Shown one piece after another: positions 11,198 to 61,723 of a stretch of DNA of 64,000 nt. Every line of letters begins with the position of its first letter. Position 1 is the first letter of the stretch. The stretch is from Acidobacteriota bacterium. Its GTDB lineage: Bacteria > Acidobacteriota > UBA6911 > RPQK01 > JAJDTT01. The notes under the pieces were generated by a model. The model did not search any database. It was not told the DNA's origin and worked only from the letters and a program-made list of their open reading frames with translations. A program made the position numbers and the translations under genes. The stretch spans positions 1,392,196-1,456,195 of the forward strand of contig OZ253580.1 in the NCBI GenBank assembly GCA_965263035.1, given 5' to 3'.

Positions 11198-13662
11198 CTG
11201 CCCTATACCCACAAATAGTGCTGGACAAACAAGAATGCCTGTCGTAGTCTCCACGACATGGCAGTTCAGAACCAGATCAAGCGCACCTTGAGCCGAGAGT
11301 TGGATCGTTTGCACGCCGTGATGAGGCGGGAGAAGTTCGCCCACCGGACGGCGCTGGCGGACCGGGTCTGCTCGGAGTTTGGATTTCACGATGCCCGAGG
11401 GCGGGCGCAACGGAGCGGCTGCCTGAAGGCGCTCCGGGAGCTGGAGGCGGGCGGACGGATTCGTCTGCCGACGCCGCGACGGCGGGTGAAACATTGCGGG
11501 CCCCGAGGACTGGGCCGTGCGGTGCCGGAGCCGGTCGGGGTGCCCGAGACGGTGGACGGCGTGCGGGAGCTGGAGTTGATCGCGGTGGAGACGGGTCCGC
11601 AACGAGCGCTCTGGAACGAGTTGATGGCGCGAGAGCATCCACGGGGCGCGGGGCCGTTGGTGGGTGCTCAACTACGCTATCTGGTGGGCTCGGCGCACGG
11701 CTGGCTGGGGGGCTTGGGGTTCGGGGCGGCGGCGTTGCGGTTGCGGGACCGGGACCGCTGGATCGGATGGGATGAGGAACAACGCCGGGCGCACCTGCAC
11801 CGGGTGGTGGGGCTGAGCCGGTTTCTGATCCGTCCGTCAGTGAGGTGTCGTAATCTGGCCTCCCGGGTGCTGGGGGAGGTGTTGCGGCGGCTGGGTCCGG
11901 AGTTCCAGGCGCGCTACGGCTACCGTCCCTGGCTGGTGGAGACCTTCGTGGAGACGGCTCGCCACGATGGGGCCAGTTTGCGCGCCACGAACTGGAGGGT
12001 TCTGGGGCAGACGCAGGGTCGAGGCCGGCAAGATCGGGCGCACCGGGGTGCGGAGACGAGCAAGGCGATCTATGGGTATGAGTTGTGCCGGGATTGGCGT
12101 CGGCGGTTGGGGGTGGGACCGGCGCCGAGGCGGGGAGTGGAACCGATGTCGGAGGGCGAGGGACTGGAGGGAGCGGGCTGGGCTCAGCAGGAGTTGGGCG
12201 GGGCGCCGCTGGGAGACCGGCGCTTGAGTCGGCGACTGGTGGAGAGTGCGCACCGTCAGGCGCAGGAGCCGGGGCGGGCGTTCACGGGAGTGGCGCGGGG
12301 CGATCCGGCGGCGGTCAAGGGATACTACCGGCTGATCGACCAGCCGGAAGCCTCGGCGGTGACGGTGTCCAACATCCTGGCCCCGCACCGGGAGCGGACC
12401 CGGCAGCGGATGCAGGGGCAGCGGACGGTGCTGTGCATCCAGGACGGGAGCGATCTGAACTTCACGCGGCACGGCCGGTGTGAGGGACTGGGGGTGATCG
12501 GGCGCAACCAGACGGGAGCGACGGCGCGGGGACTGCATCTGCACGCGACGCTGGTGGTGAGTGAGACGGGGCTGCCGCTGGGGGTGTTGCGGGCGAAGCT
12601 GGACGCGCCGAAGCCGGGACCGGTGGCCACGCGGAAAAAGAAGAAGACGTATCGCTGGATCGAGGGACTTCGGGACTGCGCCGAGGTGTCGCGGTCCCTC
12701 GACGGGGTGCGGGTGGTCAGCGTGGTGGACCGGGAGGCGGATTTTTTCGCACTGTTCGCCGAGCAACGAGCGTCTCCGGAGGTGGAGTTGCTGGTGCGTG
12801 CGAAGCAGGATCGGGTGCTGAAGCGGAAGACCCGGGCGAAGGCGGCCGGGAAAAGCGGGGATCCGGACCAGGAGCAGAAGCGGAAGCTGTTCGGGCGCCT
12901 GCGATCGGCGCCGGTGCGGGCCCGGATGCTGCTGGAGGTGAAGCGTCAGAGTGCGCGGATCAAGGCCAGCAAGCAGGCGGCCCGCCCGCGGCGGCTGGCG
13001 CGGGTGGCACGGATGGAACTGCGCTACGAGACCCTGACGATTCCGGCGCCGCGCGGGAACCCAACCGGCATCCCGTCGCTGAGACTGTCGGTGGTGCACG
13101 CGCGGGAGGTCGCGCCGCCGGCGCAGGGGAAGCGCCTGGAATGGTTCCTGCTCACCACCCTGCCGGTGACCGATGTCGAGACGGCGCAGCAACTGCTGAG
13201 ATGGTATGCCCTGCGCTGGCGGGTGGAGGATTATTTCCGGGTGCTCAAGACCGGATGCCGGGTGCAACAGCTCCAGCACCAAACCGCCGAACGTCTGAAA
13301 CGGGCCATCGCCATGCACGCCGTCATCGCCTGGCGGATCATGCTGATGACGCTGTTGGGGCGAGAGGACCCGGATCTGCCGGCGCAGTTGCTGTTTTCCG
13401 ATCTGGAAATCCGGGTCCTGGGGGCGTTTGCCGCGTCGCGACGATACCCACCGCCGGAAGACCTGGGGGCGGCCGTGCTCGTGCTGGCCCGCCTGGGAGG
13501 ATATCTGGCTCGTAAACACGACCCCCCACCCGGGCATCAACTGCTGTGGCAGGGCTACGTCACGCTTTACGGCATGTGTCTGGGCTTCGCTTTACGAGAA
13601 GAAACATGAACGAAACCAGACCCAGGCTAATGTGCCCTGTGCAATATGTGGGTAAAGGGCAG
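11198..13662 (+). mobile_element. IS4/Tn5-like insertion sequence, copy 1 (the divergent copy).
   Basis: Imperfect terminal inverted repeats CTGCCCTATACCCACAAATAGTGC ... GCAATATGTGGGTAAAGGGCAG. An 8-bp direct repeat GGCTAGCT lies at 11190-11197 and 13663-13670. It contains the 783-aa transposase ORF. Confidence 0.9.
11258..13609 (+). CDS. Fusion protein: N-terminal ~300-aa domain (DUF4338/DruA-like, from memory) + Tn5-type DDE transposase.
   Basis: The C-terminal ~470 aa match Tn5 Tnp in the DNA-binding region and the DDE triad (IQDGSD, VVDREADFF, RWRVEDYFRVLKTG). The N-terminal 300 aa have no transposase counterpart. Confidence 0.85.
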   Translation: MAVQNQIKRTLSRELDRLHAVMRREKFAHRTALADRVCSEFGFHDARGRAQRSGCLKALRELEAGGRIRLPTPRRRVKHCGPRGLGRAVPEPVGVPETVDGVRELELIAVETGPQRALWNELMAREHPRGAGPLVGAQLRYLVGSAHGWLGGLGFGAAALRLRDRDRWIGWDEEQRRAHLHRVVGLSRFLIRPSVRCRNLASRVLGEVLRRLGPEFQARYGYRPWLVETFVETARHDGASLRATNWRVLGQTQGRGRQDRAHRGAETSKAIYGYELCRDWRRRLGVGPAPRRGVEPMSEGEGLEGAGWAQQELGGAPLGDRRLSRRLVESAHRQAQEPGRAFTGVARGDPAAVKGYYRLIDQPEASAVTVSNILAPHRERTRQRMQGQRTVLCIQDGSDLNFTRHGRCEGLGVIGRNQTGATARGLHLHATLVVSETGLPLGVLRAKLDAPKPGPVATRKKKKTYRWIEGLRDCAEVSRSLDGVRVVSVVDREADFFALFAEQRASPEVELLVRAKQDRVLKRKTRAKAAGKSGDPDQEQKRKLFGRLRSAPVRARMLLEVKRQSARIKASKQAARPRRLARVARMELRYETLTIPAPRGNPTGIPSLRLSVVHAREVAPPAQGKRLEWFLLTTLPVTDVETAQQLLRWYALRWRVEDYFRVLKTGCRVQQLQHQTAERLKRAIAMHAVIAWRIMLMTLLGREDPDLPAQLLFSDLEIRVLGAFAASRRYPPPEDLGAAVLVLARLGGYLARKHDPPPGHQLLWQGYVTLYGMCLGFALREET

Positions 13663-15104: not shown

Positions 15105-15163
15105 CTCGGTGTCGTCCCCGAAGCGGCCCGCCGGACCTGGCCGGGAGCCGGGGGGCGTTCAAT

Positions 15164-15874: not shown

Positions 15875-17507
15875 GGATCACCTGGTGGCCCATACAGAAG
15901 GGGTCGATCGTTTCCAACAGGCCATCGATGAACCCGGGTCCCTCTTCCATCAGGAACTGGTTGAAGTTGACGACCCGTTCCTGCAGCTTCTCCTCGGGAT
16001 GAAGACGGGTATGAAGATAGTCCAGATGACGGCCGGCGACGCGGTCGCGGTTTCGATAGTTTTCCAGAAATCGGTTCTCCACCCGGTCCATCTGATAAAA
16101 GACTCGCTTCCAAGCCCTGGGAACCATCCTGTCGAGACTCGGATCGACGCGGACAATGTCCCCCTGTAGCCGAGTCAGGCTCTCCCTGACCACTTCCGAG
16201 ATCCGGTCGAACTCGTCCAGGACGTGCTTTGAAGCTCCTGTCCTGGCGACACGTTGGGTGATTCGGGAGGCGCCCAGGGTGAGCAGCTCGACCAGATCCA
16301 GCGAGTGCTTTTTCAGCAGCCGCTGGGACTTCCGGTCCACTACCGTTACCCCGACCCTGGGGAACACGCAGCACTGAATCTTCCAGTAGGGACTGATGGC
16401 GCCGATCTGACTGAAGTAGGCGACCTCCGCCGGCCCTCCCACGTAAGCTACGGTAGGGAAAAGGTGGTCCTGAATGATGGGCCGCAACAAAACGTTGGGA
16501 CCGAACTCACCAACTCCGGTTCGTATCCGTTCCAGCAGCTCTTCCGGCCGCAGCCGGAGAGAGCGGCTACCGCGGCTCCAATAGGCTCCGGATCGGTACT
16601 CCAACTTGTAACGCCGTCTCCCCTCGAGCCAGAAGAGGAGTGACTCTGAGCTGTCCACGGGCACCTGCACGCGGTGGCCATCCGCCTCCAGCTTCCGCCC
16701 GCGGGTCTGCAAGGAGCGGATCAGACGTTTCCGCTCCAGGACCGCCGTCTCGAAGACCTGTCTCAACGCGCCCTTGTATCCGGGTTGGAGCGCGTCGAAG
16801 AGAATGAGCCCCTGGTTTCGAAAGAGCCGGGCGAGCCAACGGCCCTGGGCATCGGTAAAAGGCGTGCCGGGCGCGAAGGCCGATTCGAGGGTTCGAAGGA
16901 TCGCTTCCTGACACTCGGAAGTGGGAGCGCCGTCCTGGAGCCTCTTCAGGGGATCACCCACCGATTCCAACGAAACCGTGCCCACCATGGTTGACGAAGG
17001 GGGGGAGGGACCGGAATAGTCCAGATGCAACAACGATCCCTGCGGACCGAAGAAGGCTGTGGAACGGGATTCCAGAAAATCAGAGTCATCGGAAGGAAGC
17101 CAGAAGACGGGAACCGCCGGACACCCCTGAGACTCCAGGACCCGGGCCAGGCTCACGGCGGTCAGCGCCTTGTAGACGGAGAGGGCCGGTCCGCCGAAGA
17201 GGCCCAGCTGTTGGCCCGTCACCACAGCCACGGTCCCCGAATCCCGCAGCTTCTCGATATTCTCGCCGGTGGAGGGCCCCGAGCCCACCCGGGCATTGAA
17301 ATCGTGCAGCATCCGGACGAGACTCTCGCGGGGCAACCGGGAGTCCCGTCCCCGCGCGGCCTCGGCCCGTTGGCGCAGAGCCTCCGGGCTGGTGTGCGCC
17401 GGTCCGGCCGGATAGAGCGGTGAGACCCGGTCGAAATCGTGCAGATACTGGAGAAAAAGCCGACTCTGCCCCGGCAACCGGCGGCGGTCGAGACGCTCGA
17501 CTCTCAT
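15867..17507 (-). CDS. bshC: Bacillithiol biosynthesis cysteine-adding enzyme BshC.
   Basis: 546 aa. VVTGQQLGLFGGPALSVYKALTAVSLARVLE...VPVFWLPSDDSDFLE aligns with the B. subtilis BshC block VVGGQQAGLLTGPLYTIHKI...IPIFWVAGEDHDLDE. PTVAYVGGPAEVAYFSQ ~ PTLAFIAGPGEINYWGE. Confidence 0.8.
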   Translation of the reverse strand: MRVERLDRRRLPGQSRLFLQYLHDFDRVSPLYPAGPAHTSPEALRQRAEAARGRDSRLPRESLVRMLHDFNARVGSGPSTGENIEKLRDSGTVAVVTGQQLGLFGGPALSVYKALTAVSLARVLESQGCPAVPVFWLPSDDSDFLESRSTAFFGPQGSLLHLDYSGPSPPSSTMVGTVSLESVGDPLKRLQDGAPTSECQEAILRTLESAFAPGTPFTDAQGRWLARLFRNQGLILFDALQPGYKGALRQVFETAVLERKRLIRSLQTRGRKLEADGHRVQVPVDSSESLLFWLEGRRRYKLEYRSGAYWSRGSRSLRLRPEELLERIRTGVGEFGPNVLLRPIIQDHLFPTVAYVGGPAEVAYFSQIGAISPYWKIQCCVFPRVGVTVVDRKSQRLLKKHSLDLVELLTLGASRITQRVARTGASKHVLDEFDRISEVVRESLTRLQGDIVRVDPSLDRMVPRAWKRVFYQMDRVENRFLENYRNRDRVAGRHLDYLHTRLHPEEKLQERVVNFNQFLMEEGPGFIDGLLETIDPFCMGHQVIHV

Positions 17508-17527
17508 GCGGCCGCCAGTTTAACCGA

Positions 17528-17565
17528 AAGTCCCGCGCGGCACCGGGACCGATGCCGCGCGGGAC
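17528..17565 (-). terminator. Stem-loop between comEA and bshC (possible comEA terminator or bshC leader structure).
   Basis: Perfect 14-bp inverted repeat AGTCCCGCGCGGCA-ccgggaccga-TGCCGCGCGGGACT. There is no strong U-tract. Confidence 0.3.
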
Positions 17566-17675
17566 TCTCATCAGGGACCTCCGGGAACAGAGTCCGCAGT
17601 GTCATGCCCCTCGAGATGACCGACGACAATCGCCGGCATCTCCATGAGACGCAAGCCTTTTGGAGGGACGGTCTG

Positions 17676-17990
17676 TTACGGGCGCTTCGCCTTTTCCTCG
17701 GAAGGGGAGGAGGGGGCCTTGACCATGATCCGGTCCCTGAGCCTCAGAAAGGTCTTCTCTCCGATGCCACGGACGTTCATCAGATCTTCAATCCGCTTGA
17801 AGGCTCCGTTTTTCTCCCGGAACGTCACGATTCGTCTGGCGATTGACGGTCCGACGCCGGGGAGGGTGTCCAACTCTTCCACGGTCGCCTGATTCAGATC
17901 CAGCTTGTCCGCAGCCGCGGCATCCGGACACCAGAGCCAGGGCATGGCCATCAGCAAGGTCGAGAACAACAGAATCTTTCGCATGTGCAC
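17676..17990 (-). CDS. comEA: ComEA-family helix-hairpin-helix DNA-binding protein.
   Basis: Signal peptide followed by the HhH motif LDLNQATVEELDTLPGVGPSIARRIVTFR...GIGEKT. Confidence 0.85.
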   Translation of the reverse strand: MHMRKILLFSTLLMAMPWLWCPDAAAADKLDLNQATVEELDTLPGVGPSIARRIVTFREKNGAFKRIEDLMNVRGIGEKTFLRLRDRIMVKAPSSPSEEKAKRP

Positions 17991-18013
17991 CTCCTTTGGT
18001 TTGGGTTTGGGGC

Positions 18014-18601
18014 TTATATATCTGACTTGACATCAGCACACAGTTCCGGCGCCACGCTCGGCCCACTGGCCCACGTTTCGGCACCCAGGGCAAGAACCCC
18101 CGCCCTGAGAATGTTCAGGGCTGCATTGTGGTCCCTGTCCATTCTGAGATCGCAGGCTGAGCAGCGATACGTCTCGCTCCTTCCCGGTCGATACCGGGCA
18201 CCAAAACGGTGACAGTCCTGCGACGTGTTTTGTGGGTTGACTTCCACGAACTCCCGACCGGCCCACTCTGCCTTGTATCGGAGCCGGGGATACCCAGGAT
18301 TCTCTCCAGCCTTGCAGCGCCGGAAGAAGGCCTGGAAGGCTCGCTCCTGGCGAAACCACATCCCCCTTTCGGCCTTGACGGCAATGGCCCCGAGCCCGTC
18401 CGGATCGTTTCTCCGCTGCTGCGTCAAACCCCGCATCTGGTCATATAGAGTCACGGATTTCTCTTCCTTCTCCCAGGTGTCCTTACGCTCCTCCAGGGCG
18501 GAGTTGTAGAGGCGGTTCAAAACCGATCTGATCCAATCCAGATGCCGAAACCCTCCCTTGGACATCTTGGCTCGGCACTGAAATATTGTGTGAACCTTCA
18601 T
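18014..18601 (-). pseudogene. IS200/IS605-family TnpB relic with in-frame loss of the RuvC core.
   Basis: The first ~130 aa align with the TnpB N-terminal region (YNSALEER, FQAFFRR, GYPRLRYK ~ GFPRFRKK of ISDra2 TnpB). The ORF then jumps directly to the C-terminal zinc-finger/RuvC-III tail (NTSQDCHRFG...YRCSACDLRMDRDHNAALNILRAG). About 200 aa of catalytic core are missing. Confidence 0.65.
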
Positions 18602-18717
18602 AGTGAATGCGAAAACACATCTCTAGGACGATCTGTCAAGTTAGATAAATGAGCCCCTTGGGTTTCCTATCTGAGCCTAACGCTCCAGATGGAAAAAACG
18701 CGAAGCGGAGCGGCGGT

Positions 18718-19971
18718 TCACCCGCCAACTGGTGCGTGGACGCCGTTGCAGAGGTAGTCGAAAATTTCGTAGTTCCGGGCTCCGTGGGCCGCCCGGGTCC
18801 GGTACTCGTCGCTCAAAGGCTCGGAAAGCAGCATGGGGACCATCTCTTCATGGCGTCCGCCGTGGGACCTTAGAGGTTGGTTCAGGACGCTCAGATCATG
18901 GTCGGCAGGGGTCCTGCCGATGACGGCGCCGGCGTCCGCCATCACGACCAGATCGCCGATGCGGTCGGCCGGCAAGTCCAGTTCTCTCGACGCCGCAGTG
19001 CGGTCGTAGACTTCGTCGATGCCGGGCAGCCGGCGGATCCAAGCGGCCACGGCAGCGGTCTTGAGCGGTTCGGTCACGTGCACCATGACCGCCGAACCCA
19101 GAGAGCCGTGGTGAACGACGTAGGGGTCCGTGATGGGACAGACCACTCGGTTTCCCTCTCCGAAACGATCTCTCAGCAGAGATTCGAGATAGACGACGTT
19201 GGGGCTCCCGTCGGGCCGGGTTTTGGCATTCATTCCGTGGTCAGCCGTCACTCCAACCCGGGCGCCGGTCTCCAGCAGCGCGCCGATCTCCCGGTCCAGC
19301 GCCTGGTGGAAATCCAGTGACTCGGAAGACTCGGGAGGGTACTTGTGCTGCATGTAGTCAGTCAGGGAGAGGAAGAGAAAATCGACCATATCCCTCTGGA
19401 TGAGTCTGGCCCCGGCCGCCAGCACGAAGAGGCTGGCGTCGGCGCTGTAGATCTCCGGCTGTGGCCTGCCCACCAGGTCTTCCAGGTTCGCGATGCCGTG
19501 GGTCTCGACGGAGGCGACGGCGGCTCGCTCGGAAGAAAAGGCGATTCCGTTCAGGCCTTTCGTGAGCAGGTCACGGAGTTTCTCCTTGGCCGTCACCATA
19601 GCCACCTTTCTGCCGGCACGGGACGCCGCCGCCAGAATGGTGTCGCACCGGACGTAGCGGGATGAGTTCATCATCAGTTCCCGGCCGGTCCGCGGATCGA
19701 GAAAGAAGTTGCCGCTGATACCAGTCACGGACGGGGGGACCCCGGAGACGATGGCAGCATTGTTCACGTTGGTGAAGGAGGGGAGAGCGCCCCGGACCAC
19801 GGACTCGAATCCACCTGCGGCCAGACCGTCCAGATGAGGCATGCGGCCCCGACGCCTGGAGACCTCCAGGTACTCGGGCCCGCAGCCATCGATGCAGACC
19901 ACCACCAGGGGCTTGGCCGGAGGCCGGTATTCCCGCCCGTTGACCCGGAAAGGTGTGGTGCTGATCCGCAT
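18718..19971 (-). CDS. Alkaline-phosphatase-superfamily hydrolase, phosphonoacetate hydrolase (PhnA)-like.
   Basis: VVVCIDGCGPEYL, PSFTNVNNAAIVSGVPPSVTGISGNFF, VAMVTAKEKLRDLL and ITDPYVVHHGSLGS match, from memory, the conserved blocks of Pseudomonas PhnA. Confidence 0.6.
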   Translation of the reverse strand: MRISTTPFRVNGREYRPPAKPLVVVCIDGCGPEYLEVSRRRGRMPHLDGLAAGGFESVVRGALPSFTNVNNAAIVSGVPPSVTGISGNFFLDPRTGRELMMNSSRYVRCDTILAAASRAGRKVAMVTAKEKLRDLLTKGLNGIAFSSERAAVASVETHGIANLEDLVGRPQPEIYSADASLFVLAAGARLIQRDMVDFLFLSLTDYMQHKYPPESSESLDFHQALDREIGALLETGARVGVTADHGMNAKTRPDGSPNVVYLESLLRDRFGEGNRVVCPITDPYVVHHGSLGSAVMVHVTEPLKTAAVAAWIRRLPGIDEVYDRTAASRELDLPADRIGDLVVMADAGAVIGRTPADHDLSVLNQPLRSHGGRHEEMVPMLLSEPLSDEYRTRAAHGARNYEIFDYLCNGVHAPVGG

Positions 19972-19981
19972 CAAGCAGCCG

Positions 19982-20797
19982 TCAATTGGAGAAGTACCAG
20001 CGCAGAATCTCGGGACCCCAAAGGGCGGCCGCAGCCGATGCCACACCCAGGAACGTTCCGAACGGCAACGGGTAGCTCCGTCGCTTGGAGCGGGCCCGCA
20101 TGTAGATGGAGCCCGCGACGGCTCCCACCACCGAACCCAGGAAGACGCTCAGCCAGGCACACTTCCAGCCCAGGAAGGCGCCCAGCATGGCCGTCATCTT
20201 GACGTCGCCGAATCCCATCCCGTCGATGCCTGAAAAACGGCGGTAGAGGGCGGCGATCAACCAAAGAAAGCCACCTCCCACCCCGGCTCCCAGGAGGGAG
20301 AATCCCAGGTGGTCCCAGGCCGGGAGCGACGCCGTCCTCGCCTCCCAGTGGAAGAAATCCGGATCCTGAAAAGGCGACAGGAGGACACCGGCCGCCAAAC
20401 CTCCGAGCGTCAGGACGTCGGGCAGGATCCGATGGTAAAGGTCGATGACGGTGAGAGCCAGGATCAACGCCAGGAACAGGCAGCTGACCACAAAGGCCGA
20501 GGACCAACCGAACCGCATCCAGGCGGTGACAAAAAGAGCTGCGGTCGCGGCCTCCAGCAGCGGGTACTGGAGAGAGATGCGCCGGTGGCAGGCGCGGCAG
20601 CGGCCCTTGAGGAGCAAGAAGCTCAAGACCGGAATGTTGTCCCCGGCCGATATCGGTTTCGAGCAGTTCGGGCAGCGGGAGCGGGGCCGAATGACCGACT
20701 CCCGGCGCGGGAGACGGTGAATGCAGACATTGAGAAAGCTTCCGATCACCAATCCGGCCAGGGCCGGCACGACTGCGATCCAATCCATCTCCCGCAA
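19982..20797 (-). CDS. pilD: Prepilin peptidase (A24 family, PilD/GspO).
   Basis: N-terminal GSFLNV, the Cys-rich RCPNC...CRAC zinc site and a multi-TM C-terminal peptidase domain. Confidence 0.85.
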   Translation of the reverse strand: MREMDWIAVVPALAGLVIGSFLNVCIHRLPRRESVIRPRSRCPNCSKPISAGDNIPVLSFLLLKGRCRACHRRISLQYPLLEAATAALFVTAWMRFGWSSAFVVSCLFLALILALTVIDLYHRILPDVLTLGGLAAGVLLSPFQDPDFFHWEARTASLPAWDHLGFSLLGAGVGGGFLWLIAALYRRFSGIDGMGFGDVKMTAMLGAFLGWKCAWLSVFLGSVVGAVAGSIYMRARSKRRSYPLPFGTFLGVASAAAALWGPEILRWYFSN

Positions 20798-29186: not shown

Positions 29187-29353
29187 CTAGGAGGCTGCGC
29201 CGCAGAAATTGATCTACTGCGAAAGCGGTAGAATCGGTCCATATTTCCTCGATTTCTCGGCGAATAGAACAACTATGCACCTCCAAATCGAGAAAATCTG
29301 GCCTCGATTCCCCACTTTCTCGCTACGATCATTTCTACCGCGCAGACTCCTAG
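29187..29353 (+). repeat. MITE-like ~165-bp repeat, copy A.
   Basis: Same sequence as 50846-51012. Its reverse complement is at 35103-35268. Terminal inverted repeats GAGGCTGCGCCGCAGAAAT ... ATTTCTACCGCGCAGACTC. A CTAG tetranucleotide bounds both ends. Confidence 0.85.
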
Positions 29354-29355
29354 CC

Positions 29356-31817
29356 CTGCTCTATACCCACAAATAGTGCTGGACAAACAAGAATGCCTGT
29401 CGTAGTCTTCACGACATGGTAGTTCAGAACCAGATCAAGCGCACCTTGAGCCGAGAGTTGGATCGTTTGCACGCCGTGATGAGGCGGGAGAAGTTCGCCC
29501 ACCGGACGGCGCTGGCGGACCGGGTCTGCTCGGAGTTTGGATTTCACGATGCCCGAGGGCGGGCGCAACGGAGCGGCTGCCTGAAGGCGCTCCGGGAGCT
29601 GGAGGCGGGCGGACGGATTCGTCTGCCGACGCCGCGACGGCGGGTGAAACATTGCGGGCCCCGAGGACTGGGCCGTGCGGTGCCGGAGCCGGTGGAAGTG
29701 CCCGAGACGGTGGACGGCGTGCGGGAGCTGGAGTTGATTCTGGTGGAGACGGGTCCGCAACGAGCGCTCTGGAACGAGTTGATGGCGCGAGAGCATCCAC
29801 GGGGCGCGGGGCCGTTGGTGGGTGCTCAACTACGCTATCTGGTGGGCTCGGCCCACGGCTGGCTGGGGGGCTTGGGGTTCGGGGCGGCGGCGTTGCGGTT
29901 GCGGGACCGGGACCGCTGGATCGGATGGGATGAGGAACAACGCCGGGCGCACCTGCACCGGGTGGTGGGGCTGAGCCGGTTTCTGATCCGTCCGTCAGTG
30001 AGGTGTCGTAATCTGGCCTCCCGGGTGCTGGGGGAGGTGTTGCGGCGGCTGGGTCCGGAGTTCCAGGCGCGCTACGGCTACCGTCCCTGGCTGGTGGAGA
30101 CCTTCGTGGAGACGGCTCGCCACGATGGGGCCAGTTTGCGCGCCACGAACTGGAGGGTTCTGGGGAAGACGCAGGGTCGAGGCCGGCAAGATCGGGCGCA
30201 CCGGGGTGCGGAGACGAGCAAGGCGATCTATGGGTATGAGTTGTGCCGGGATTGGCGTCGGCGGTTGGGGGTGGGACCGGCGCCGAGGCGGGGAGTGGAA
30301 CCGATGTCGGAGGGCGAGGGACTGGAGGGAGAGGGCTGGGCTCAGCAGGAGTTGGGCGGGGCGCCGCTGGGAGACCGGCGCTTGAGTCGGCGACTGGTGG
30401 AGAGTGCGCACCGTCAGGCGCAGGAGCCGGGGCGGGCGTTCACGGGAGTGGCGCGGGGCGATCCGGCGGCGGTCAAGGGATACTACCGGCTGATCGACCA
30501 GCCGGAAGCCTCGGCGGTGACGGTGTCCAACATCCTGGCCCCGCACCGGGAGCGGACCCGGCAGCGGATGCAGGGGCAGCGGACGGTGCTGTGCATCCAG
30601 GACGGGAGCGATCTGAACTTCACGCGGCACGGCCGGTGTGAGGGACTGGGGGTGATCGGGCGCAACCAGACGGGAGCGACGGCGCGGGGACTGCATCTGC
30701 ACGCGACGCTGGTGGTGAGTGAGACGGGGCTGCCGCTGGGGGTGTTGCGGGCGAAGCTGGACGCGCCGAAGCCGGGACCGGTGGCCACGCGGAAAAAGAA
30801 GAAGACGTATCGCTGGATCGAGGGACTTCGGGACTGCGCCGAGGTGTCGCGGTCCCTCGACGGGGTGCGGGTGGTCAGCGTGGTGGACCGGGAGGCGGAT
30901 TTTTTCGCACTGTTCGCCGAGCAACGAGCGTCTCCGGAGGTGGAGTTGCTGGTGCGTGCGAAGCAGGATCGGGTGCTGAAGAGGAAGACCCCGGCGAAGG
31001 CGGCCGGGAAAAGCGCGGATCCGGACCCGGAGCAGAAGCGGAAGCTGTTCGGGCGCCTGCGATCGGCGCCGGTGCGGGCCCGGATGCTGCTGGAGGTGAA
31101 GCGTCAGAGTGCGCGGATCAAGGCCAGCAAGCAGGCGGCCCGCCCGCGGCGGCTGGCGCGGGTGGCTCGGATGGAACTGCGCTACGAGACCCTGACGATT
31201 CCGGCGCCGCGCGGGAACCCAACCGGCATCCCGTCGCTGAGACTGTCGGTGGTGCACGCGCGGGAGGTCGCGCCGCCGGCGCAGGGGAAGCGCCTGGAAT
31301 GGTTCCTGCTCACCACCCTGCCGGTGACCGATGTCGAGACGGCGCAGCAACTGCTGAGATGGTATGCGCTGCGCTGGCGGGTGGAGGATTATTTCCGGGT
31401 GCTCAAGACCGGATGCCGGGTACAACAGCTCCAGCACCAAACCGCCGAACGTCTGAAACGGGCCATCGCCATGCACGCCGTCATCGCCTGGCGGATCATG
31501 CTGATGACGCTGTTGGGGCGAGAGGACCCGGACCTGCCGGCGCAATTGTTGTTCTCGGATCTGGAAATTCGGGTCCTGGGGGCGTTTGCCGCGTCGCGAG
31601 GATTCCCAGCGCCGGAAGACCTGGGGGCGGCCGTGCTCGTGCTGGCCCGCCTGGGAGGATATCTGGCTCGTAAACACGACTCCCCACCTGGGCATCAACT
31701 GATGTGGCAGGGCTACGTCACGCTCTACGGCATGTGTCTGGGCTTCGCTTTACGAGAAGAAACATGAATGAAACCGGACGGCTAATTTGCCCTGTGCAAT
31801 ATGTGGGTAAAGGGCAG
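29356..31817 (+). mobile_element. IS4/Tn5-like insertion sequence, copy 2.
   Basis: 8-bp TSD TCCTAGCC at 29348-29355 and 31818-31825. The left IR carries one mismatch (CTGCTC). Confidence 0.9.
29416..31767 (+). CDS. Fusion transposase (DUF4338-like N-domain + Tn5-type DDE transposase), copy 2.
   Basis: 783 aa, ~99% identical to copies 3 and 4. Confidence 0.85.
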   Translation: MVVQNQIKRTLSRELDRLHAVMRREKFAHRTALADRVCSEFGFHDARGRAQRSGCLKALRELEAGGRIRLPTPRRRVKHCGPRGLGRAVPEPVEVPETVDGVRELELILVETGPQRALWNELMAREHPRGAGPLVGAQLRYLVGSAHGWLGGLGFGAAALRLRDRDRWIGWDEEQRRAHLHRVVGLSRFLIRPSVRCRNLASRVLGEVLRRLGPEFQARYGYRPWLVETFVETARHDGASLRATNWRVLGKTQGRGRQDRAHRGAETSKAIYGYELCRDWRRRLGVGPAPRRGVEPMSEGEGLEGEGWAQQELGGAPLGDRRLSRRLVESAHRQAQEPGRAFTGVARGDPAAVKGYYRLIDQPEASAVTVSNILAPHRERTRQRMQGQRTVLCIQDGSDLNFTRHGRCEGLGVIGRNQTGATARGLHLHATLVVSETGLPLGVLRAKLDAPKPGPVATRKKKKTYRWIEGLRDCAEVSRSLDGVRVVSVVDREADFFALFAEQRASPEVELLVRAKQDRVLKRKTPAKAAGKSADPDPEQKRKLFGRLRSAPVRARMLLEVKRQSARIKASKQAARPRRLARVARMELRYETLTIPAPRGNPTGIPSLRLSVVHAREVAPPAQGKRLEWFLLTTLPVTDVETAQQLLRWYALRWRVEDYFRVLKTGCRVQQLQHQTAERLKRAIAMHAVIAWRIMLMTLLGREDPDLPAQLLFSDLEIRVLGAFAASRGFPAPEDLGAAVLVLARLGGYLARKHDSPPGHQLMWQGYVTLYGMCLGFALREET

Positions 31818-35102: not shown

Positions 35103-35268
35103 CTAGAGTCTGCGCGGTAGAAATGATCGTAGCGAGAAAGTGGGGAATCGAGGCCAGATTTTCTCGATTTGGAGGTGCATAGTTGTTCTATTCGCCGAGA
35201 AATCGAGGAAATATGGACCGATTCTACCGCTTTCGCAGTAGATCGATTTCTGCGGCGCAGGCTCCTAG
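35103..35268 (-). repeat. MITE-like repeat, copy B (inverted orientation).
   Basis: Reverse complement of copy A. CTAG at both ends (35103-35106 and 35265-35268). Confidence 0.85.
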
Positions 35269-48381: not shown

Positions 48382-50843
48382 CTGCCCTATACCCACAAAT
48401 AGTGCTGGACAAACAAGAATGCCTGTCGTAGTCTTCACGACATGGTAGTTCAGAACCAGATCAAGCGCACCTTGAGCCGAGAGTTGGATCGTTTGCACGC
48501 CGTGATGAGGCGGGAGAAGTTCGCCCACCGGACGGCGCTGGCGGACCGGGTCTGCTCGGAGTTTGGATTTCACGATGCCCGAGGGCGGGCGCAACGGAGC
48601 GGCTGCCTGAAGGCGCTCCGGGAGCTGGAGGCGGGCGGACGGATTCGTCTGCCGACGCCGCGACGGCGGGTGAACCATTGCGGGCCCCGAGGACTGGGCC
48701 GTGCGGTGCCGGAGCCGGTCGGGGTGCCCGAGACGGTGGACGGCGTGCGGGAGCTGGAGTTGATTCTGGTGGAGACGGGTCCGCAACGAGCGCTCTGGAA
48801 CGAGTTGATGGCGCGAGAGCATCCACGGGGCGCGGGGCCGTTGGTGGGTGCTCAACTACGCTATCTGGTGGGCTCGGCCCACGGCTGGCTGGGGGGCTTG
48901 GGGTTCGGGGCGGCGGCGTTGCGGTTGCGGGACCGGGACCGCTGGATCGGATGGGATGAGGAACAACGCCGGGCGCACCTGCACCGGGTGGTGGGGCTGA
49001 GCCGGTTTCTGATCCGTCCGTCAGTGAGGTGTCGTAATCTGGCCTCCCGGGTGCTGGGGGAGGTGTTGCGGCGGCTGGGTCCGGAGTTCCAGGCGCGCTA
49101 CGGCTACCGTCCCTGGCTGGTGGAGACCTTCGTGGAGACGGCTCGCCACGATGGGGCCAGTTTGCGCGCCACGAACTGGAGGGTTCTGGGGCAGACGCAG
49201 GGTCGAGGCCGGCAAGATCGGGCGCACCGGGGTGCGGAGACGAGCAAGGCGATCTATGGGTATGAGTTGTGCCGGGATTGGCGGCGGCGGTTGGGGGTGG
49301 GACCGGCGCCGAGGCGGGGAGTGGAACCGATGTCGGAGGGCGAGGGACTGGAGGGAGCGGGCTGGGCTCAGCAGGAGTTGGGCGGGGCGCCGCTGGGAGA
49401 CCGGCGCTTGAGTCGGCGACTGGTGGAGAGTGCGCACCGACAGGCGCAGGAGCCGGGGCGGGCGTTCACGGGAGTGGCGCGGGGGGATTCTGCGGCGGTC
49501 AAGGGATACTACCGGCTGATCGACCAGCCGGAAGCCTCGGCGGTGACGGTGTCCAACATCCTGGCCCCGCACCGGGAGCGGACCCGGCAGCGGATGCAGG
49601 GGCAGCGGACGGTGCTGTGCATCCAGGACGGGAGCGATCTGAACTTCACGCGGCACGGCCGGTGTGAGGGACTGGGAGTGATCGGGCGCAACCAGACGGG
49701 AGCGACGGCGCGGGGACTGCATCTGCACGCGACGCTGGTGGTGAGTGAGACGGGGCTGCCGCTGGGGGTGTTGCGGGCGAAGCTGGACGCGCCGAAGCCG
49801 GGACCGGTGGCCACGCGGAAAAAGAAGAAGACGTATCGCTGGATCGAGGGACTTCGGGACTGCGCCGAGGTGTCGCGGTCCCTCGACGGGGTGCGGGTGG
49901 TCAGCGTGGTGGACCGGGAGGCGGATTTTTTCGCACTGTTCGCCGAGCAACGAGCGTCTCCGGAGGTGGAGTTGCTGGTGCGTGCGAAGCAGGATCGGGT
50001 GCTGAAGAGGAAGACCCCGGCGAAGGCGGCCGGGAAAAGCGCGGATCCGGACCCGGAGCAGAAGCGGAAGCTGTTCGGGCGCCTGCGATCGGCGCCGGTG
50101 CGGGCCCGGATGCTGCTGGAGGTGAAGCGTCAGAGTGCGCGGATCAAGGCCAGCAAGCAGGCGGCCCGCCCGCGGCGGCTGGCGCGGGTGGCTCGGATGG
50201 AACTGCGCTACGAGACCCTGACGATTCCGGCGCCGCGCGGGAACCCAACCGGCATCCCGTCGCTGAGACTGTCGGTGGTGCACGCGCGGGAGGTCGCGCC
50301 GCCGGCGCAGGGGAAGCGCCTGGAATGGTTCCTGCTCACCACCCTGCCGGTGACCGATGTCGAGACGGCGCAGCAACTGCTGAGATGGTATGCGCTGCGC
50401 TGGCGGGTGGAGGATTATTTCCGGGTGCTCAAGACCGGATGCCGGGTACAACAGCTCCAGCACCAAACCGCCGAACGTCTGAAACGGGCCATCGCCATGC
50501 ACGCCGTCATCGCCTGGCGGATCATGCTGATGACGCTGTTGGGGCGAGAGGACCCGGACCTGCCGGCGCAATTGTTGTTTTCCGATCTGGAAATCCGGGT
50601 CCTGGGGGCGTTTGCCGCGTCGCGAGGATTCCCAGCGCCGGAAGACCTGGGGGCGGCCGTGCTCGTGCTGGCCCGCCTGGGAGGATATCTGGCTCGTAAA
50701 CACGACTCCCCACCTGGGCATCAACTGATGTGGCAGGGCTACGTCACGCTCTACGGCATGTGTCTGGGCTTCGCTTTACGAGAAGAAACATGAATGAAAC
50801 CGGACGGCTAATTTGCCCTGTGCAATATGTGGGTAAAGGGCAG
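48382..50843 (+). mobile_element. IS4/Tn5-like insertion sequence, copy 3.
   Basis: 8-bp TSD GGCTAGGA at 48374-48381 and 50844-50851. The right TSD overlaps the start of MITE copy C. Confidence 0.9.
48442..50793 (+). CDS. Fusion transposase, copy 3.
   Basis: 783 aa. It differs from copy 4 at ~2 positions. Confidence 0.85.
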   Translation: MVVQNQIKRTLSRELDRLHAVMRREKFAHRTALADRVCSEFGFHDARGRAQRSGCLKALRELEAGGRIRLPTPRRRVNHCGPRGLGRAVPEPVGVPETVDGVRELELILVETGPQRALWNELMAREHPRGAGPLVGAQLRYLVGSAHGWLGGLGFGAAALRLRDRDRWIGWDEEQRRAHLHRVVGLSRFLIRPSVRCRNLASRVLGEVLRRLGPEFQARYGYRPWLVETFVETARHDGASLRATNWRVLGQTQGRGRQDRAHRGAETSKAIYGYELCRDWRRRLGVGPAPRRGVEPMSEGEGLEGAGWAQQELGGAPLGDRRLSRRLVESAHRQAQEPGRAFTGVARGDSAAVKGYYRLIDQPEASAVTVSNILAPHRERTRQRMQGQRTVLCIQDGSDLNFTRHGRCEGLGVIGRNQTGATARGLHLHATLVVSETGLPLGVLRAKLDAPKPGPVATRKKKKTYRWIEGLRDCAEVSRSLDGVRVVSVVDREADFFALFAEQRASPEVELLVRAKQDRVLKRKTPAKAAGKSADPDPEQKRKLFGRLRSAPVRARMLLEVKRQSARIKASKQAARPRRLARVARMELRYETLTIPAPRGNPTGIPSLRLSVVHAREVAPPAQGKRLEWFLLTTLPVTDVETAQQLLRWYALRWRVEDYFRVLKTGCRVQQLQHQTAERLKRAIAMHAVIAWRIMLMTLLGREDPDLPAQLLFSDLEIRVLGAFAASRGFPAPEDLGAAVLVLARLGGYLARKHDSPPGHQLMWQGYVTLYGMCLGFALREET

Positions 50844-50845
50844 GG

Positions 50846-51012
50846 CTAGGAGCCTGCGCGGCAGAAATTGATCTACTGCGAAAGCGGTAGAATCGGTCCA
50901 TATTTCCTCGATTTCTCGGCGAATAGAACAACTATGCACCTCCAAATCGAGAAAATCTGGCCTCGATTCCCCACTTTCTCGCTACGATCATTTCTACCGC
51001 GCAGACTCCTAG
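50846..51012 (+). repeat. MITE-like repeat, copy C.
   Basis: Identical in organisation to copy A. CTAG at 50846-50849 and 51009-51012; the latter contains the stop codon of the downstream methyltransferase gene. Confidence 0.85.
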
Positions 51013-59261: not shown

Positions 59262-61723
59262 CTGCCCTATACCCACAAATAGTGCTGGACAAACAAGAAT
59301 GCCTGTCGTAGTCTTCACGACATGGTAGTTCAGAACCAGATCAAGCGCACCTTGAGCCGAGAGTTGGATCGTTTGCACGCCGTGATGAGGCGGGAGAAGT
59401 TCGCCCACCGGACGGCGCTGGCGGACCGGGTCTGCTCGGAGTTTGGATTTCACGATGCCCGAGGGCGGGCGCAACGGAGCGGCTGCCTGAAGGCGCTCCG
59501 GGAGTTGGAGGCGCGCGGACGGATTCGTCTGCCGACGCCGCGACGGCGGGTGAAACATTGCGGGCCCCGAGGACTGGGCCGTGCGGTGCCGGAGCCGGTC
59601 GGGGTGCCCGAGACGGTGGACGGCGTGCGGGAGCTGGAGTTGATTCTGGTGGAGACGGGTCCGCAACGAGCGCTCTGGAACGAGTTGATGGCGCGAGAGC
59701 ATCCACGGGGCGCGGGGCCGTTGGTGGGTGCTCAACTACGCTATCTGGTGGGCTCGGCCCACGGCTGGCTGGGGGGCTTGGGGTTCGGGGCGGCGGCGTT
59801 GCGGTTGCGGGACCGGGACCGCTGGATCGGATGGGATGAGGAACAACGCCGGGCGCACCTGCACCGGGTGGTGGGGCTGAGCCGGTTTCTGATCCGTCCG
59901 TCAGTGAGGTGTCGTAATCTGGCCTCCCGGGTGCTGGGGGAGGTGTTGCGGCGGCTGGGTCCGGAGTTCCAGGCGCGCTACGGCTACCGTCCCTGGCTGG
60001 TGGAGACCTTCGTGGAGACGGCTCGCCACGATGGGGCCAGTTTGCGCGCCACGAACTGGAGGGTTCTGGGGCAGACGCAGGGTCGAGGCCGGCAAGATCG
60101 GGCGCACCGGGGTGCGGAGACGAGCAAGGCGATCTATGGGTATGAGTTGTGCCGGGATTGGCGGCGGCGGTTGGGGGTGGGACCGGCGCCGAGGCGGGGA
60201 GTGGAACCGATGTCGGAGGGCGAGGGACTGGAGGGAGCGGGCTGGGCTCAGCAGGAGTTGGGCGGGGCGCCGCTGGGAGACCGGCGCTTGAGTCGGCGAC
60301 TGGTGGAGAGTGCGCACCGACAGGCGCAGGAGCCGGGGCGGGCGTTCACGGGAGTGGCGCGGGGGGATTCTGCGGCGGTCAAGGGATACTACCGGCTGAT
60401 CGACCAGCCGGAAGCCTCGGCGGTGACGGTGTCCAACATCCTGGCCCCGCACCGGGAGCGGACCCGGCAGCGGATGCAGGGGCAGCGGACGGTGCTGTGC
60501 ATCCAGGACGGGAGCGATCTGAACTTCACGCGGCACGGCCGGTGTGAGGGACTGGGAGTGATCGGGCGCAACCAGACGGGAGCGACGGCGCGGGGACTGC
60601 ATCTGCACGCGACGCTGGTGGTGAGTGAGACGGGGCTGCCGCTGGGGGTGTTGCGGGCGAAGCTGGACGCGCCGAAGCCGGGACCGGTGGCCACGCGGAA
60701 AAAGAAGAAGACGTATCGCTGGATCGAGGGACTTCGGGACTGCGCCGAGGTGTCGCGGTCCCTCGACGGGGTGCGGGTGGTCAGCGTGGTGGACCGGGAG
60801 GCGGATTTTTTCGCACTGTTCGCCGAGCAACGAGCGTCTCCGGAGGTGGAGTTGCTGGTGCGTGCGAAGCAGGATCGGGTGCTGAAGAGGAAGACCCCGG
60901 CGAAGGCGGCCGGGAAAAGCGCGGATCCGGACCCGGAGCAGAAGCGGAAGCTGTTCGGGCGCCTGCGATCGGCGCCGGTGCGGGCCCGGATGCTGCTGGA
61001 GGTGAAGCGTCAGAGTGCGCGGATCAAGGCCAGCAAGCAGGCGGCCCGCCCGCGGCGGCTGGCGCGGGTGGCTCGGATGGAACTGCGCTACGAGACCCTG
61101 ACGATTCCGGCGCCGCGCGGGAACCCAACCGGCATCCCGTCGCTGAGACTGTCGGTGGTGCACGCGCGGGAGGTCGCGCCGCCGGCGCAGGGGAAGCGCC
61201 TGGAATGGTTCCTGCTCACCACCCTGCCGGTGACCGATGTCGAGACGGCGCAGCAACTGCTGAGATGGTATGCGCTGCGCTGGCGGGTGGAGGATTATTT
61301 CCGGGTGCTCAAGACCGGATGCCGGGTACAACAGCTCCAGCACCAAACCGCCGAACGTCTGAAACGGGCCATCGCCATGCACGCCGTCATCGCCTGGCGG
61401 ATCATGCTGATGACGCTGTTGGGGCGAGAGGACCCGGACCTGCCGGCGCAATTGTTGTTTTCCGATCTGGAAATCCGGGTCCTGGGGGCGTTTGCCGCGT
61501 CGCGAGGATTCCCAGCGCCGGAAGACCTGGGGGCGGCCGTGCTCGTGCTGGCCCGCCTGGGAGGATATCTGGCTCGTAAACACGACTCCCCACCTGGGCA
61601 TCAACTGATGTGGCAGGGCTACGTCACGCTCTACGGCATGTGTCTGGGCTTCGCTTTACGAGAAGAAACATGAATGAAACCGGACGGCTAATTTGCCCTG
61701 TGCAATATGTGGGTAAAGGGCAG
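59262..61723 (+). mobile_element. IS4/Tn5-like insertion sequence, copy 4, inserted in hsdS.
   Basis: 8-bp TSD CCCTAGCC at 59254-59261 and 61724-61731. Confidence 0.9.
59322..61673 (+). CDS. Fusion transposase, copy 4.
   Basis: 783 aa. All DDE residues are intact. Confidence 0.85.
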   Translation: MVVQNQIKRTLSRELDRLHAVMRREKFAHRTALADRVCSEFGFHDARGRAQRSGCLKALRELEARGRIRLPTPRRRVKHCGPRGLGRAVPEPVGVPETVDGVRELELILVETGPQRALWNELMAREHPRGAGPLVGAQLRYLVGSAHGWLGGLGFGAAALRLRDRDRWIGWDEEQRRAHLHRVVGLSRFLIRPSVRCRNLASRVLGEVLRRLGPEFQARYGYRPWLVETFVETARHDGASLRATNWRVLGQTQGRGRQDRAHRGAETSKAIYGYELCRDWRRRLGVGPAPRRGVEPMSEGEGLEGAGWAQQELGGAPLGDRRLSRRLVESAHRQAQEPGRAFTGVARGDSAAVKGYYRLIDQPEASAVTVSNILAPHRERTRQRMQGQRTVLCIQDGSDLNFTRHGRCEGLGVIGRNQTGATARGLHLHATLVVSETGLPLGVLRAKLDAPKPGPVATRKKKKTYRWIEGLRDCAEVSRSLDGVRVVSVVDREADFFALFAEQRASPEVELLVRAKQDRVLKRKTPAKAAGKSADPDPEQKRKLFGRLRSAPVRARMLLEVKRQSARIKASKQAARPRRLARVARMELRYETLTIPAPRGNPTGIPSLRLSVVHAREVAPPAQGKRLEWFLLTTLPVTDVETAQQLLRWYALRWRVEDYFRVLKTGCRVQQLQHQTAERLKRAIAMHAVIAWRIMLMTLLGREDPDLPAQLLFSDLEIRVLGAFAASRGFPAPEDLGAAVLVLARLGGYLARKHDSPPGHQLMWQGYVTLYGMCLGFALREET

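Follow-up and report, generated by a model that had tools for sequence, protein, structure and literature searches.

The window analysed here, that is, the whole stretch of 64 kb of DNA, carried a 195-aa open reading frame (ORF) on its minus strand, and the coordinates of the features at this locus are listed in Table 1. The ORF was located inside a 649-bp element (18009-18657), which had terminal inverted repeats (TIRs) of 24 bp and was flanked by an 8-bp target-site duplication (TSD). A phosphonoacetate-hydrolase-like gene and a comEA-like gene flanked the insertion, which lay within the 76-nt spacer separating the two. The comEA ATG at 17984 was 29 nt past the stop codon of the ORF; a start at the GTG at 17990 would reduce this distance to 23 nt. 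An earlier sequence-only reading of this DNA had placed comEA 24 bp downstream; the closeness of the gene was confirmed, and the distance had to be corrected. Among the genes and Pfam domains listed for the orthologous locus there was no tnpA, in agreement with that reading. Moreover, neither the element nor the ~8 kb around it contained a Y1 (HUH) TnpA, and no serine recombinase was found nearby.

Table 1. Features of the relic element and its surroundings, in the numbering of the window.
Feature	Position	Strand	Basis
TSD, left copy, 8 bp, AAACCCAA	18658..18665	-	Identical to right copy; single AAACCCAA and no element in L028, L029, L032, L034
Left-end TIR, GGGGCTCATTTATCTAACTTGACA	18634..18657	-	21/24 against reverse complement of right end; homology to L002/L005 paralogues begins here
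195-aa TnpB-remnant ORF	18014..18601	-	ORF list and translation
ORF 5' part, residues 1-108: TnpB N-terminal strand and REC helices	18278..18601	-	L005 2-107; ISDra2 31-113
Deletion junction (CTCCGA/T), 594 bp lost (WED, RuvC-I, RuvC-II)	18277..18283	-	BLAST blocks; sequence comparison with L002, L005, L006
ORF 3' part, residues 109-195 and stop: RuvC helix, TNB zinc finger, DRD RuvC-III motif, C-terminal tail	18014..18277	-	PF07282; L005 304-392; ISDra2 302-379
Omega-RNA-like structured scaffold over ORF 3' end and right end	18009..18135	-	RNAalifold, covariation test, folding
Right-end TIR, TGTCAAGTCAGATATATAAGCCCC	18009..18032	-	Inter-copy homology stops at ...AAGCCCC
TSD, right copy, 8 bp, AAACCCAA	18001..18008	-	Identity to left copy; empty sites
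Candidate omega-RNA guide flank, AAACCCAAACCAAAGGAGGT, covering the comEA ribosome-binding site	17989..18008	-	Predicted from the TnpB guide rule
comEA-like gene, downstream, outside the element	17676..17984	-	TIGR00426 ComEA HhH region, 70.3 bits (cut-off 53.1); HHH_3 at orthologous loci

The homology of the ORF to TnpB was evaluated with profiles, a solved structure and an intact relative. Pfam PF07282 (Cas12f1-like TNB) matched residues 106-164 with E=2.6e-20, and the NCBIfam model guided_TnpB (NF040570) matched in two stretches with 73.9 bits, which is below its cut-off of 100. In the alignment with the solved ISDra2 TnpB (8bf8), residues 31-111 of the ORF corresponded to TnpB 31-113 and residues 102-175 to TnpB 302-379, indicating that ~190 middle residues were gone. 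The reference for mapping was L005, an intact 392-aa family member from an Acidobacteriota MAG, and tblastn with this protein resolved the ORF into L005 residues 2-107 and 304-392. L005 passed the guided_TnpB cut-off of 100 at 200.3 bits, and contained GIDLG (RuvC-I, D190), AVEKL (RuvC-II, E271), DRDHN (RuvC-III) and two CxxC pairs. The D190 and E271 equivalents were absent from the ORF, because they fell inside the deleted 594 bp, and the WED domain was missing as well (equivalents of ISDra2 ~114-301). The RuvC-III Asp was kept in a DRDHN motif at residues 155-159, with D157 aligning to ISDra2 D361. The second CxxC of the zinc finger was intact (C147-S-A-C150), whereas the first was degenerate (C130-H-R-F133, that is, C133F); the corresponding pair was CxxC in 14 of 14 intact relatives (CHRC). 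What is left of the protein, namely REC helices, a zinc finger minus one ligand and the RuvC-III helix, would not be a plausible nuclease or guide-RNA binder. At the DNA level, the ORF 5' part was 87.5-90% identical to the subfamily-A copies and the 3' part 95.6-95.9% identical to L005 and L002. The better conservation of the 3' part may be due to a constraint that still acts on the RNA or on the right end. The sequence-only reading had taken the ORF for a TnpB remnant without RuvC-I and RuvC-II and without a frameshift, and the homology blocks, the profile matches and the in-frame deletion bore this out. Its N- and C-terminal portions were likewise recovered as two blocks, of about 108 and 87 aa rather than ~130 and ~60 aa.

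Alignment of the DNA to full-length copies showed that 594 bp (198 codons) were missing in frame. The junction reads ...CGG CTC CGA/TAC AAG... at 18277-18283, where the slash marks the breakpoint. BLAST blocks against the full-length L006 copy overlapped by 5 nt at the junction, and a short imperfect microhomology, TCCGA/TCCAG, was seen at the deletion edges in the comparison with L002, L005 and L006. A reading frame survives a random deletion one time in three, and the in-frame deletion by itself was weak evidence for domestication. A second copy with this junction was found neither in the 64-kb window nor in the protein databases nor in the JGI metagenomes; hence, a deletion in situ and the insertion of an already short element were indistinguishable. 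In the JGI metagenomes, a codon-degenerate version of the junction gave 0 matches, a weak negative since the genomes concerned here are ENA/NCBI assemblies.

The ends of the element were defined by comparison among paralogues. Homology extended from 56 nt upstream of the ATG to 5 nt past the stop codon, and the inverted-repeat ends, GGGGCTCATTTATCTAACTTGACA and the complement of GGGGCTTATATATCTGACTTGACA, matched at 21 of 24 positions. The right end was 5-30 nt past the stop codon in every family copy (5 nt in the relic). Fifteen family copies, representing five subfamilies with protein identity down to 53%, all had TIRs and a copy-specific A/T-rich 8-bp TSD; the duplication was perfect in 12 and matched at 7/8 in 3, a count that allows a one-base offset in L017-L019. 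Furthermore, an orientation-specific G (usually GG) stood just 5' of the duplicated target, on the left side only, at 15/15 sites. Orthologous loci were located via the neighbouring phosphonoacetate-hydrolase-like gene. The empty site read ...CAGATAGA-AAACCCAA-ACCAAAGGAGG... in L028, L029 and L032, and ...GATAGG-AAACCCAA-ACCATAAGGAGG... in L034, and the BLAST blocks between the window and L028 overlapped by exactly the 8 nt of the TSD. The single AAACCCAA of the empty sites and this overlap denote a true insertion with a real TSD. L007 has a full-length copy at a point that is unoccupied in the window (15128-15158).

These ends bear on the class of the element. IS200/IS605 elements (including the tnpB-only IS1341) and IS607 have neither TIRs nor TSDs; IS200/IS605 elements carry subterminal hairpins in place of TIRs, and for them and IS1341 the insertion point is set by a fixed tetra- or pentanucleotide on its 5' side (PMC13565253, PMC3627910). 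The element described here has both TIRs and an 8-bp TSD, and it is therefore not of that type. Hence, of the 'decaying IS605 relic' suggested from the sequence alone, the decaying relic stands and the IS605 assignment does not, the 24-bp TIRs and the 8-bp TSD having been proven by empty sites. The intact L005 protein scored 154 against the IS200/IS605-specific NCBIfam model (cut-off 425) and 113.5 against the IS607-specific NF038280 (cut-off 350). With ISDra2 TnpB (8bf8/8exa) and the IS1341 group, the relic shares the homology of both blocks, the single-gene organisation and the RNA structure reaching to the right end. It differs from them in the loss of WED and RuvC-I/II, in its sub-threshold profile score and in the TIRs and 8-bp TSDs of its family.

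Inverted ends are known round TnpBs that travel in elements with a DDE transposase, of which six branches are published, and solo TnpBs can be bounded by these same ends (Altae-Tran et al., 2023, PMC10691335). These TIR-bounded DDE-type or solo TnpB elements are the closest described kind, sharing inverted ends round a solo tnpB, a 3' end of the gene near the transposon end and the lack of an internal transposase. A cognate DDE transposase was found neither in the window nor in ~200 kb of related loci nor fused in long relatives, and Pfam detected no transposase domain on nine long relatives (500-620 aa). A tblastn search of PLSDB plasmids with the intact protein returned relatives of <=36% identity only, which were uninformative on ends or partner. 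The four-copy 783-aa DruA/Tn5-like IS of the window was considered as a mobiliser and rejected, because its TIRs were unrelated and its TSD was NNCTAGNN at a CTAG-centred target. The DDE families associated with TnpB include ISL2 and IS1031 (PMC13565253). IS630 is also named among them in the literature. All three generate 2-4-bp duplications, not 8 bp. The ends GGnnATTAT together with the 8-bp TSD may resemble those of the ISNwi1 group of IS1595, and mobilisation by a DDE-type enzyme would fit the architecture. Internal deletions of tnpB elements are known from Haloquadratum as PATEs and core-deleted IS1341-type elements (PMC3119063). The relic resembles such MITEs and PATEs in the lost core, the two retained ends, the deletion between short repeats and the many broken relatives; it differs in that its short form is single-copy, has not multiplied and still carries a 195-aa ORF.

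The sequence-only reading had left no room for an omega-RNA, and this view was overturned by the RNA analysis. Since the right end always lies near the stop codon, a scaffold can only be accommodated by overlap with the 3' end of the coding region, and the scaffold was indeed mostly inside the ORF. The terminal 220 nt of 19 copies were folded jointly with RNAalifold; four main helices fell within the final ~110-130 nt, with 32 predicted pairs, 13 of them with compensatory changes. In a pair-count test, 97.5% of the cells were paired, compared with 33-48% when the partners were slid by 1-3 columns, and the covariation score was reached by 0 of 500 shuffles. The scaffold sequence of the window folded likewise (-62.4 kcal/mol, z=-2.9). 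The right edge of the deletion is 270 nt from the right end; hence, the relic retains the whole scaffold (18009-18135). Judging from its position and its family, this RNA is probably the TnpB guide scaffold. TnpB guides are read from the DNA directly 3' of the right end, which would make AAACCCAAACCAAAGGAGGT the guide region of the relic. A search of Rfam over 16500-20000 at E<=1 gave no omega-RNA family, only a chance-level sRNA match at 17522-17664, and a scan of 17600-18800 for sigma-70 promoters and terminators gave none on the minus strand.

The distribution of the short form among genomes was narrow. The sequence-only reading had looked to orthologous short forms in related genomes, and the same short form (P0001) was found at the same locus only in L001, which is 98.8-99.5% identical to the window. 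The five next-closest genomes (91.7%, 87.1%, 86.5%, 87.3% and 85.9% identical) all had an empty site. Since only two ~99%-identical strains have the short form and the site is empty in their relatives, the insertion and the deletion were recent and belong to one species-level lineage. L001 is an independent assembly (ENA ERZ26051151) that has the identical junction and a different neighbouring IS content, including an IS4-type element that splits the left TIR of the relic. No specific sign of a mis-assembly or chimera was noted beyond the fact that the relatives are metagenome assemblies, some of low coverage, and given the same junction among other IS neighbours in L001, an artefactual deletion is next to impossible.

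Another history was suggested by L006 (OZ242374.1), in which a full-length tnpB is located at the exact same nucleotide position, after ...CAGATAGG, in the same orientation and with flanks that are syntenic with the window and 85.6-85.7% identical. One ancient insertion might accordingly have been shared with L006 and then been shortened recently in the lineage of the window. However, the window copy was 90-96% identical to the subfamily-A copies L002 and L005 at other loci and only 70-85% identical to the L006 copy, which in turn was 93.4% identical to the L007 copy at another locus. Moreover, the TSD of L006, AAACGAAA, differed from AAACCCAA of the window on both sides, each matching the spacer of its own lineage, and the site was empty in genomes nearer to the window than L006. 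A shared ancient insertion is hence extremely unlikely. On these sequence comparisons, the window and L006 copies are two independent insertions of different subfamilies at one hotspot, not orthologues. The full-length TnpB that the sequence-only reading envisaged at this locus in a related genome thus exists, of another subfamily and with another TSD, and is not the ancestor of the relic. That two subfamilies arrived independently at one and the same nucleotide in front of comEA is a sign of strong target selection.

Short TnpB forms were also sought in protein databases. In a word-indexed search of 5.8 billion proteins, P0001 was the sole highly identical protein to share this architecture. 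An exhaustive phmmer search of 1.84 billion representatives gave mostly proteins of 370-480 aa and ~9 short two-block forms, and every junction was different. P0027 (181 aa, 42% identical, in L003) was the sole match that aligned straight across the junction; its zinc finger was intact and TIR-like ends were present. When P0027 was used as a second seed, relatives of ~180-195 aa broke at differing places. A conserved 'mini-TnpB' family, tried with the relic and P0027 as seeds, was rejected, because the short forms were all singletons with different breakpoints. Several independent left breakpoints lay at or within a few residues of GYPRF, perhaps through biased detection or through an effect of a domain boundary. 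In related Acidobacteriota genomes, the family is multicopy and was recently mobile, and most of the subfamily-A copies found were broken. Complete genomes with the family include OZ242374.1, OZ241897.1, OZ242276.1 and CBDCJH010000002.1. Decayed copies, with deletions, frameshifts or a MITE insertion, were P0002, P0003, P0005, P0006, P0009-P0012, P0025, L010, L021 and L022; other in-frame deletions occurred in P0002, P0006, P0025 and L021, and frameshifted copies were many. The 64-kb window contained no full-length family copy. The subfamily-A TIR gave 0 matches in the JGI metagenomes, again a weak result for genomes held as ENA/NCBI assemblies.

The constraint on the relic was estimated from the window and L001. 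Four nonsynonymous and one synonymous differences were counted (pN 0.0089, pS 0.0073, pN/pS ~1.2); these are very small counts, and L001 is a 2x-coverage contig, so that some of the differences may be sequencing errors. The pN of four neighbouring genes was 0-0.0028, and that of the relic was 3-5 times that of its neighbours. In addition, 4 of 77 family-invariant residues were altered in the relic (T6I, L85Q, F107L and the zinc ligand C133F), compared with 0-3, mostly 0-1, in 14 intact copies. These comparisons point towards relaxed constraint on the relic. Decay is opposed by the unbroken ORF, which keeps its native start codon in the two strains, and by the continued presence of the RuvC-III Asp and the second CxxC.

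These observations bear on the domestication that had been offered as the other option for this ORF, in which a nuclease-dead derivative is kept by the host as a 195-aa REC and TNB protein that binds DNA or RNA, for example as a regulator of comEA. The in-frame deletion would agree with such a role, as would an ORF that has kept its start codon and is uninterrupted in two strains; a site directly upstream of comEA would suit a regulator, and the GYPRF motif is also close to the breakpoints of a few unrelated short TnpBs (P0006, P0027, P0050, P0162). However, the form is restricted to the two ~99%-identical strains, the site is empty in five related genomes, the pN and pN/pS values are those of a relaxed sequence, and several invariant residues, a zinc ligand among them, are gone. 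The short forms elsewhere, as singletons with different junctions, supply no conserved relatives, and the two contigs carrying P0027, L003 and L004, are 99.97% identical and thus uninformative on selection. TldRs are known nuclease-dead, TnpB-like repressors. They are reported to be near full-length and conserved across species, with the transposon ends lost and guides matching host promoters (10.1101/2023.11.30.569447). The relic resembles the TldRs in its incomplete RuvC active site, its position next to a host gene and its guide-type scaffold. Unlike them, it has lost half the protein, including the WED and RuvC core that TldRs are reported to retain (10.1101/2023.11.30.569447), is strain-restricted and under relaxed constraint, and lies within intact transposon ends. 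Host domestication of the ORF is therefore very unlikely.

A further alternative is that the relic is a still-active, MITE-like mini-element, whose TIRs and omega-RNA work in trans while other loci of the genome supply the transposase and the full-length TnpB. The two TIRs, the TSD and the entire covariation-supported scaffold are intact, the 3' part is closer to the paralogues than the 5' part (96% against 88-90%), the family is multicopy and has moved recently in related genomes, and P0027 in L003 is likewise short, of comparable size and bounded by TIR-like ends. By contrast, no second copy of the junction was found in the window, the protein databases or the JGI metagenomes, the window lacks a full-length family copy, most subfamily-A copies found are themselves broken, and the left TIR in L001 has been split by another IS with no apparent consequence. 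Continued activity is on balance unlikely.

The relic is very probably a decaying, non-autonomous, 649-bp internal-deletion derivative of a TIR-bounded tnpB-only element of ~1.24 kb. The element inserted into the spacer between the phosphonoacetate-hydrolase-like gene and comEA and duplicated AAACCCAA, after the split from the ~92%-identical relatives and before the two ~99%-identical strains diverged. The 594-bp deletion between short imperfect microhomologies removed the WED domain and RuvC-I/II with the frame kept, and the remaining protein would be drifting, devoid of RNA-guided nuclease capacity. With its TIRs, TSD and omega-RNA-like scaffold intact, the element might still be moved by the transposase of the family, and its RNA might be bound in trans by full-length TnpB paralogues. 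A more far-reaching possibility concerns the family as a whole. The family could represent an undescribed pairing of TnpB and omega-RNA with cut-and-paste transposition (TIRs, 8-bp TSD), in which the left-side G/GG would be the TAM for homing at empty sites and the relic a live guide-only hitch-hiker using transposase and TnpB in trans. This possibility is unlikely. If it were true, the guide region of the hitch-hiker would coincide with the comEA ribosome-binding site.

The relic itself, read as a decaying derivative, matters little; it is ordinary genomic debris and a textbook case of selfish-element decay, and the architecture of the family is the more interesting by-product. The label 'IS200/IS605 family' on an element with tnpB only can conceal a TIR/TSD element, whose ends, guides and TAMs should then be predicted differently. 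With its intact members, exact ends, empty sites and scaffold RNA, the family provides material for studying how TnpB homing goes together with target-duplicating transposition.

The tnpB-only family was delimited by terminal inverted repeats (TIRs) of ~22-26 bp that start with GGGG(A/C)TTATA (window 18001-18665; loci L002 and L005-L020 from related genomes). The elements were ~1243-1255 bp in length and were flanked throughout the family by A/T-rich 8-bp target-site duplications (TSDs), which differed from copy to copy. IS200/IS605 elements, in contrast, have neither TIRs nor TSDs. Genes resembling the family tnpB are commonly annotated under IS200/IS605.

Evidence for recent mobility of the family came from a site with the PIG-L and Bac_transf genes on either side. 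It was empty in the window, whereas in L007, from a genome ~89% identical to the window, it was filled by a full-length subfamily-B copy with the TSD AATTGAAA. The L006 copy and the window relic, which come from two lineages, share both their orientation and their exact nucleotide position upstream of comEA. These copies belong to different subfamilies and are independent insertions; hence, the comEA-upstream site (...CAGATAGG|AAAC...) is an insertion hotspot. AAACGAWW targets were likewise used by the L002 and L015 copies. The tnpB of the L006 copy (contig OZ242374.1) was full-length and carried C344S in the second CxxC pair. Because the Cys at this position was invariant in the other intact family copies, the substitution suggests that this gene may be losing function.

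The base directly 5' of the left TSD was G in 15/15 insertions (window 18666-18667 for the relic), and the second base was mostly G. A mirror-image G preference was looked for on the right side of the same 15 insertions, and none was seen. The left-flank G is an orientation-specific target feature of the family. It could be a putative TAM that serves homing guided by the omega-RNA, or it could reflect an asymmetric preference of the transposase.

Related genomes also contained other copies of the family that were shortened by deletion or truncation (L010, L021 and L022). One of them was 466 bp in length, with a left-TIR-like start joined to codon ~243, and in another, residues 110-185 were fused in-frame to residues 343-392. 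Independent short forms of TnpB were also present in unrelated lineages (P0006, P0027, P0045, P0050 and P0162); their left breakpoint often coincided with the conserved GYPRF motif or lay only a few residues from it, and the right breakpoint was at L-x-YKAEW in several of them. The recurrence of these positions may be due to bias in the search, to a hotspot for deletions or to an effect of domain boundaries.

Coordinates of the tnpB-family copies and other mobile elements
Feature	Location	Strand
Relic upstream of comEA	window 18009-18657	-
Copy upstream of comEA	L006:2935-4184	
tnpB of this copy	L006:3004-4158	
Empty PIG-L/Bac_transf site	window 15128-15158	
Copy at this site	L007:2179-3428	
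Deletion derivative	L010:2813-3278	
Deletion derivative	L021:2785-3156	
783-aa-protein IS	window 11258-13609	+
783-aa-protein IS	window 29416-31767	+
783-aa-protein IS	window 48442-50793	+
783-aa-protein IS	window 59322-61673	+
MITE-like repeat	window 29195-29348	+
MITE-like repeat	window 35107-35261	-
MITE-like repeat	window 50853-51007	+
MITE-like repeat in tnpB	L002:4823-4977	
IS4-type element	L001:6270-7918	

The copies of the 783-aa-protein IS were near-identical, and four copies per 64 kb is a very high density. The protein contained DruA (PF14236), Tn5-type DNA-binding, DDE_Tnp_1 and Tn5 dimerisation domains, and the element had TIRs (CTGCCCTATACCCACAAATA...) and 8-bp TSDs with CTAG at the centre (NNCTAGNN). 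The ~155-bp MITE-like repeat (CCTGCGC(C/G)GCAGAAATTGATC...ATTTCTACCGCGCAGACT) showed 97% identity among its three window copies, two of which adjoined copies of this IS. The same repeat interrupted a paralogous tnpB in L002, with CCTGGGAG repeated on both flanks. In the sister strain (L001), an IS4-type element encoding a 441-aa DDE_Tnp_1 protein was inserted within the left TIR of the relic (between window-equivalent 18642 and 18647).

A TATAA(G/T)-like hexamer was located 4 nt from the terminus at every right end (window 18009-18020; all copies), and the left ends carried a matching hexamer on the opposite strand. This hexamer could be a putative -10 box directed outward, towards neighbouring genes such as comEA.
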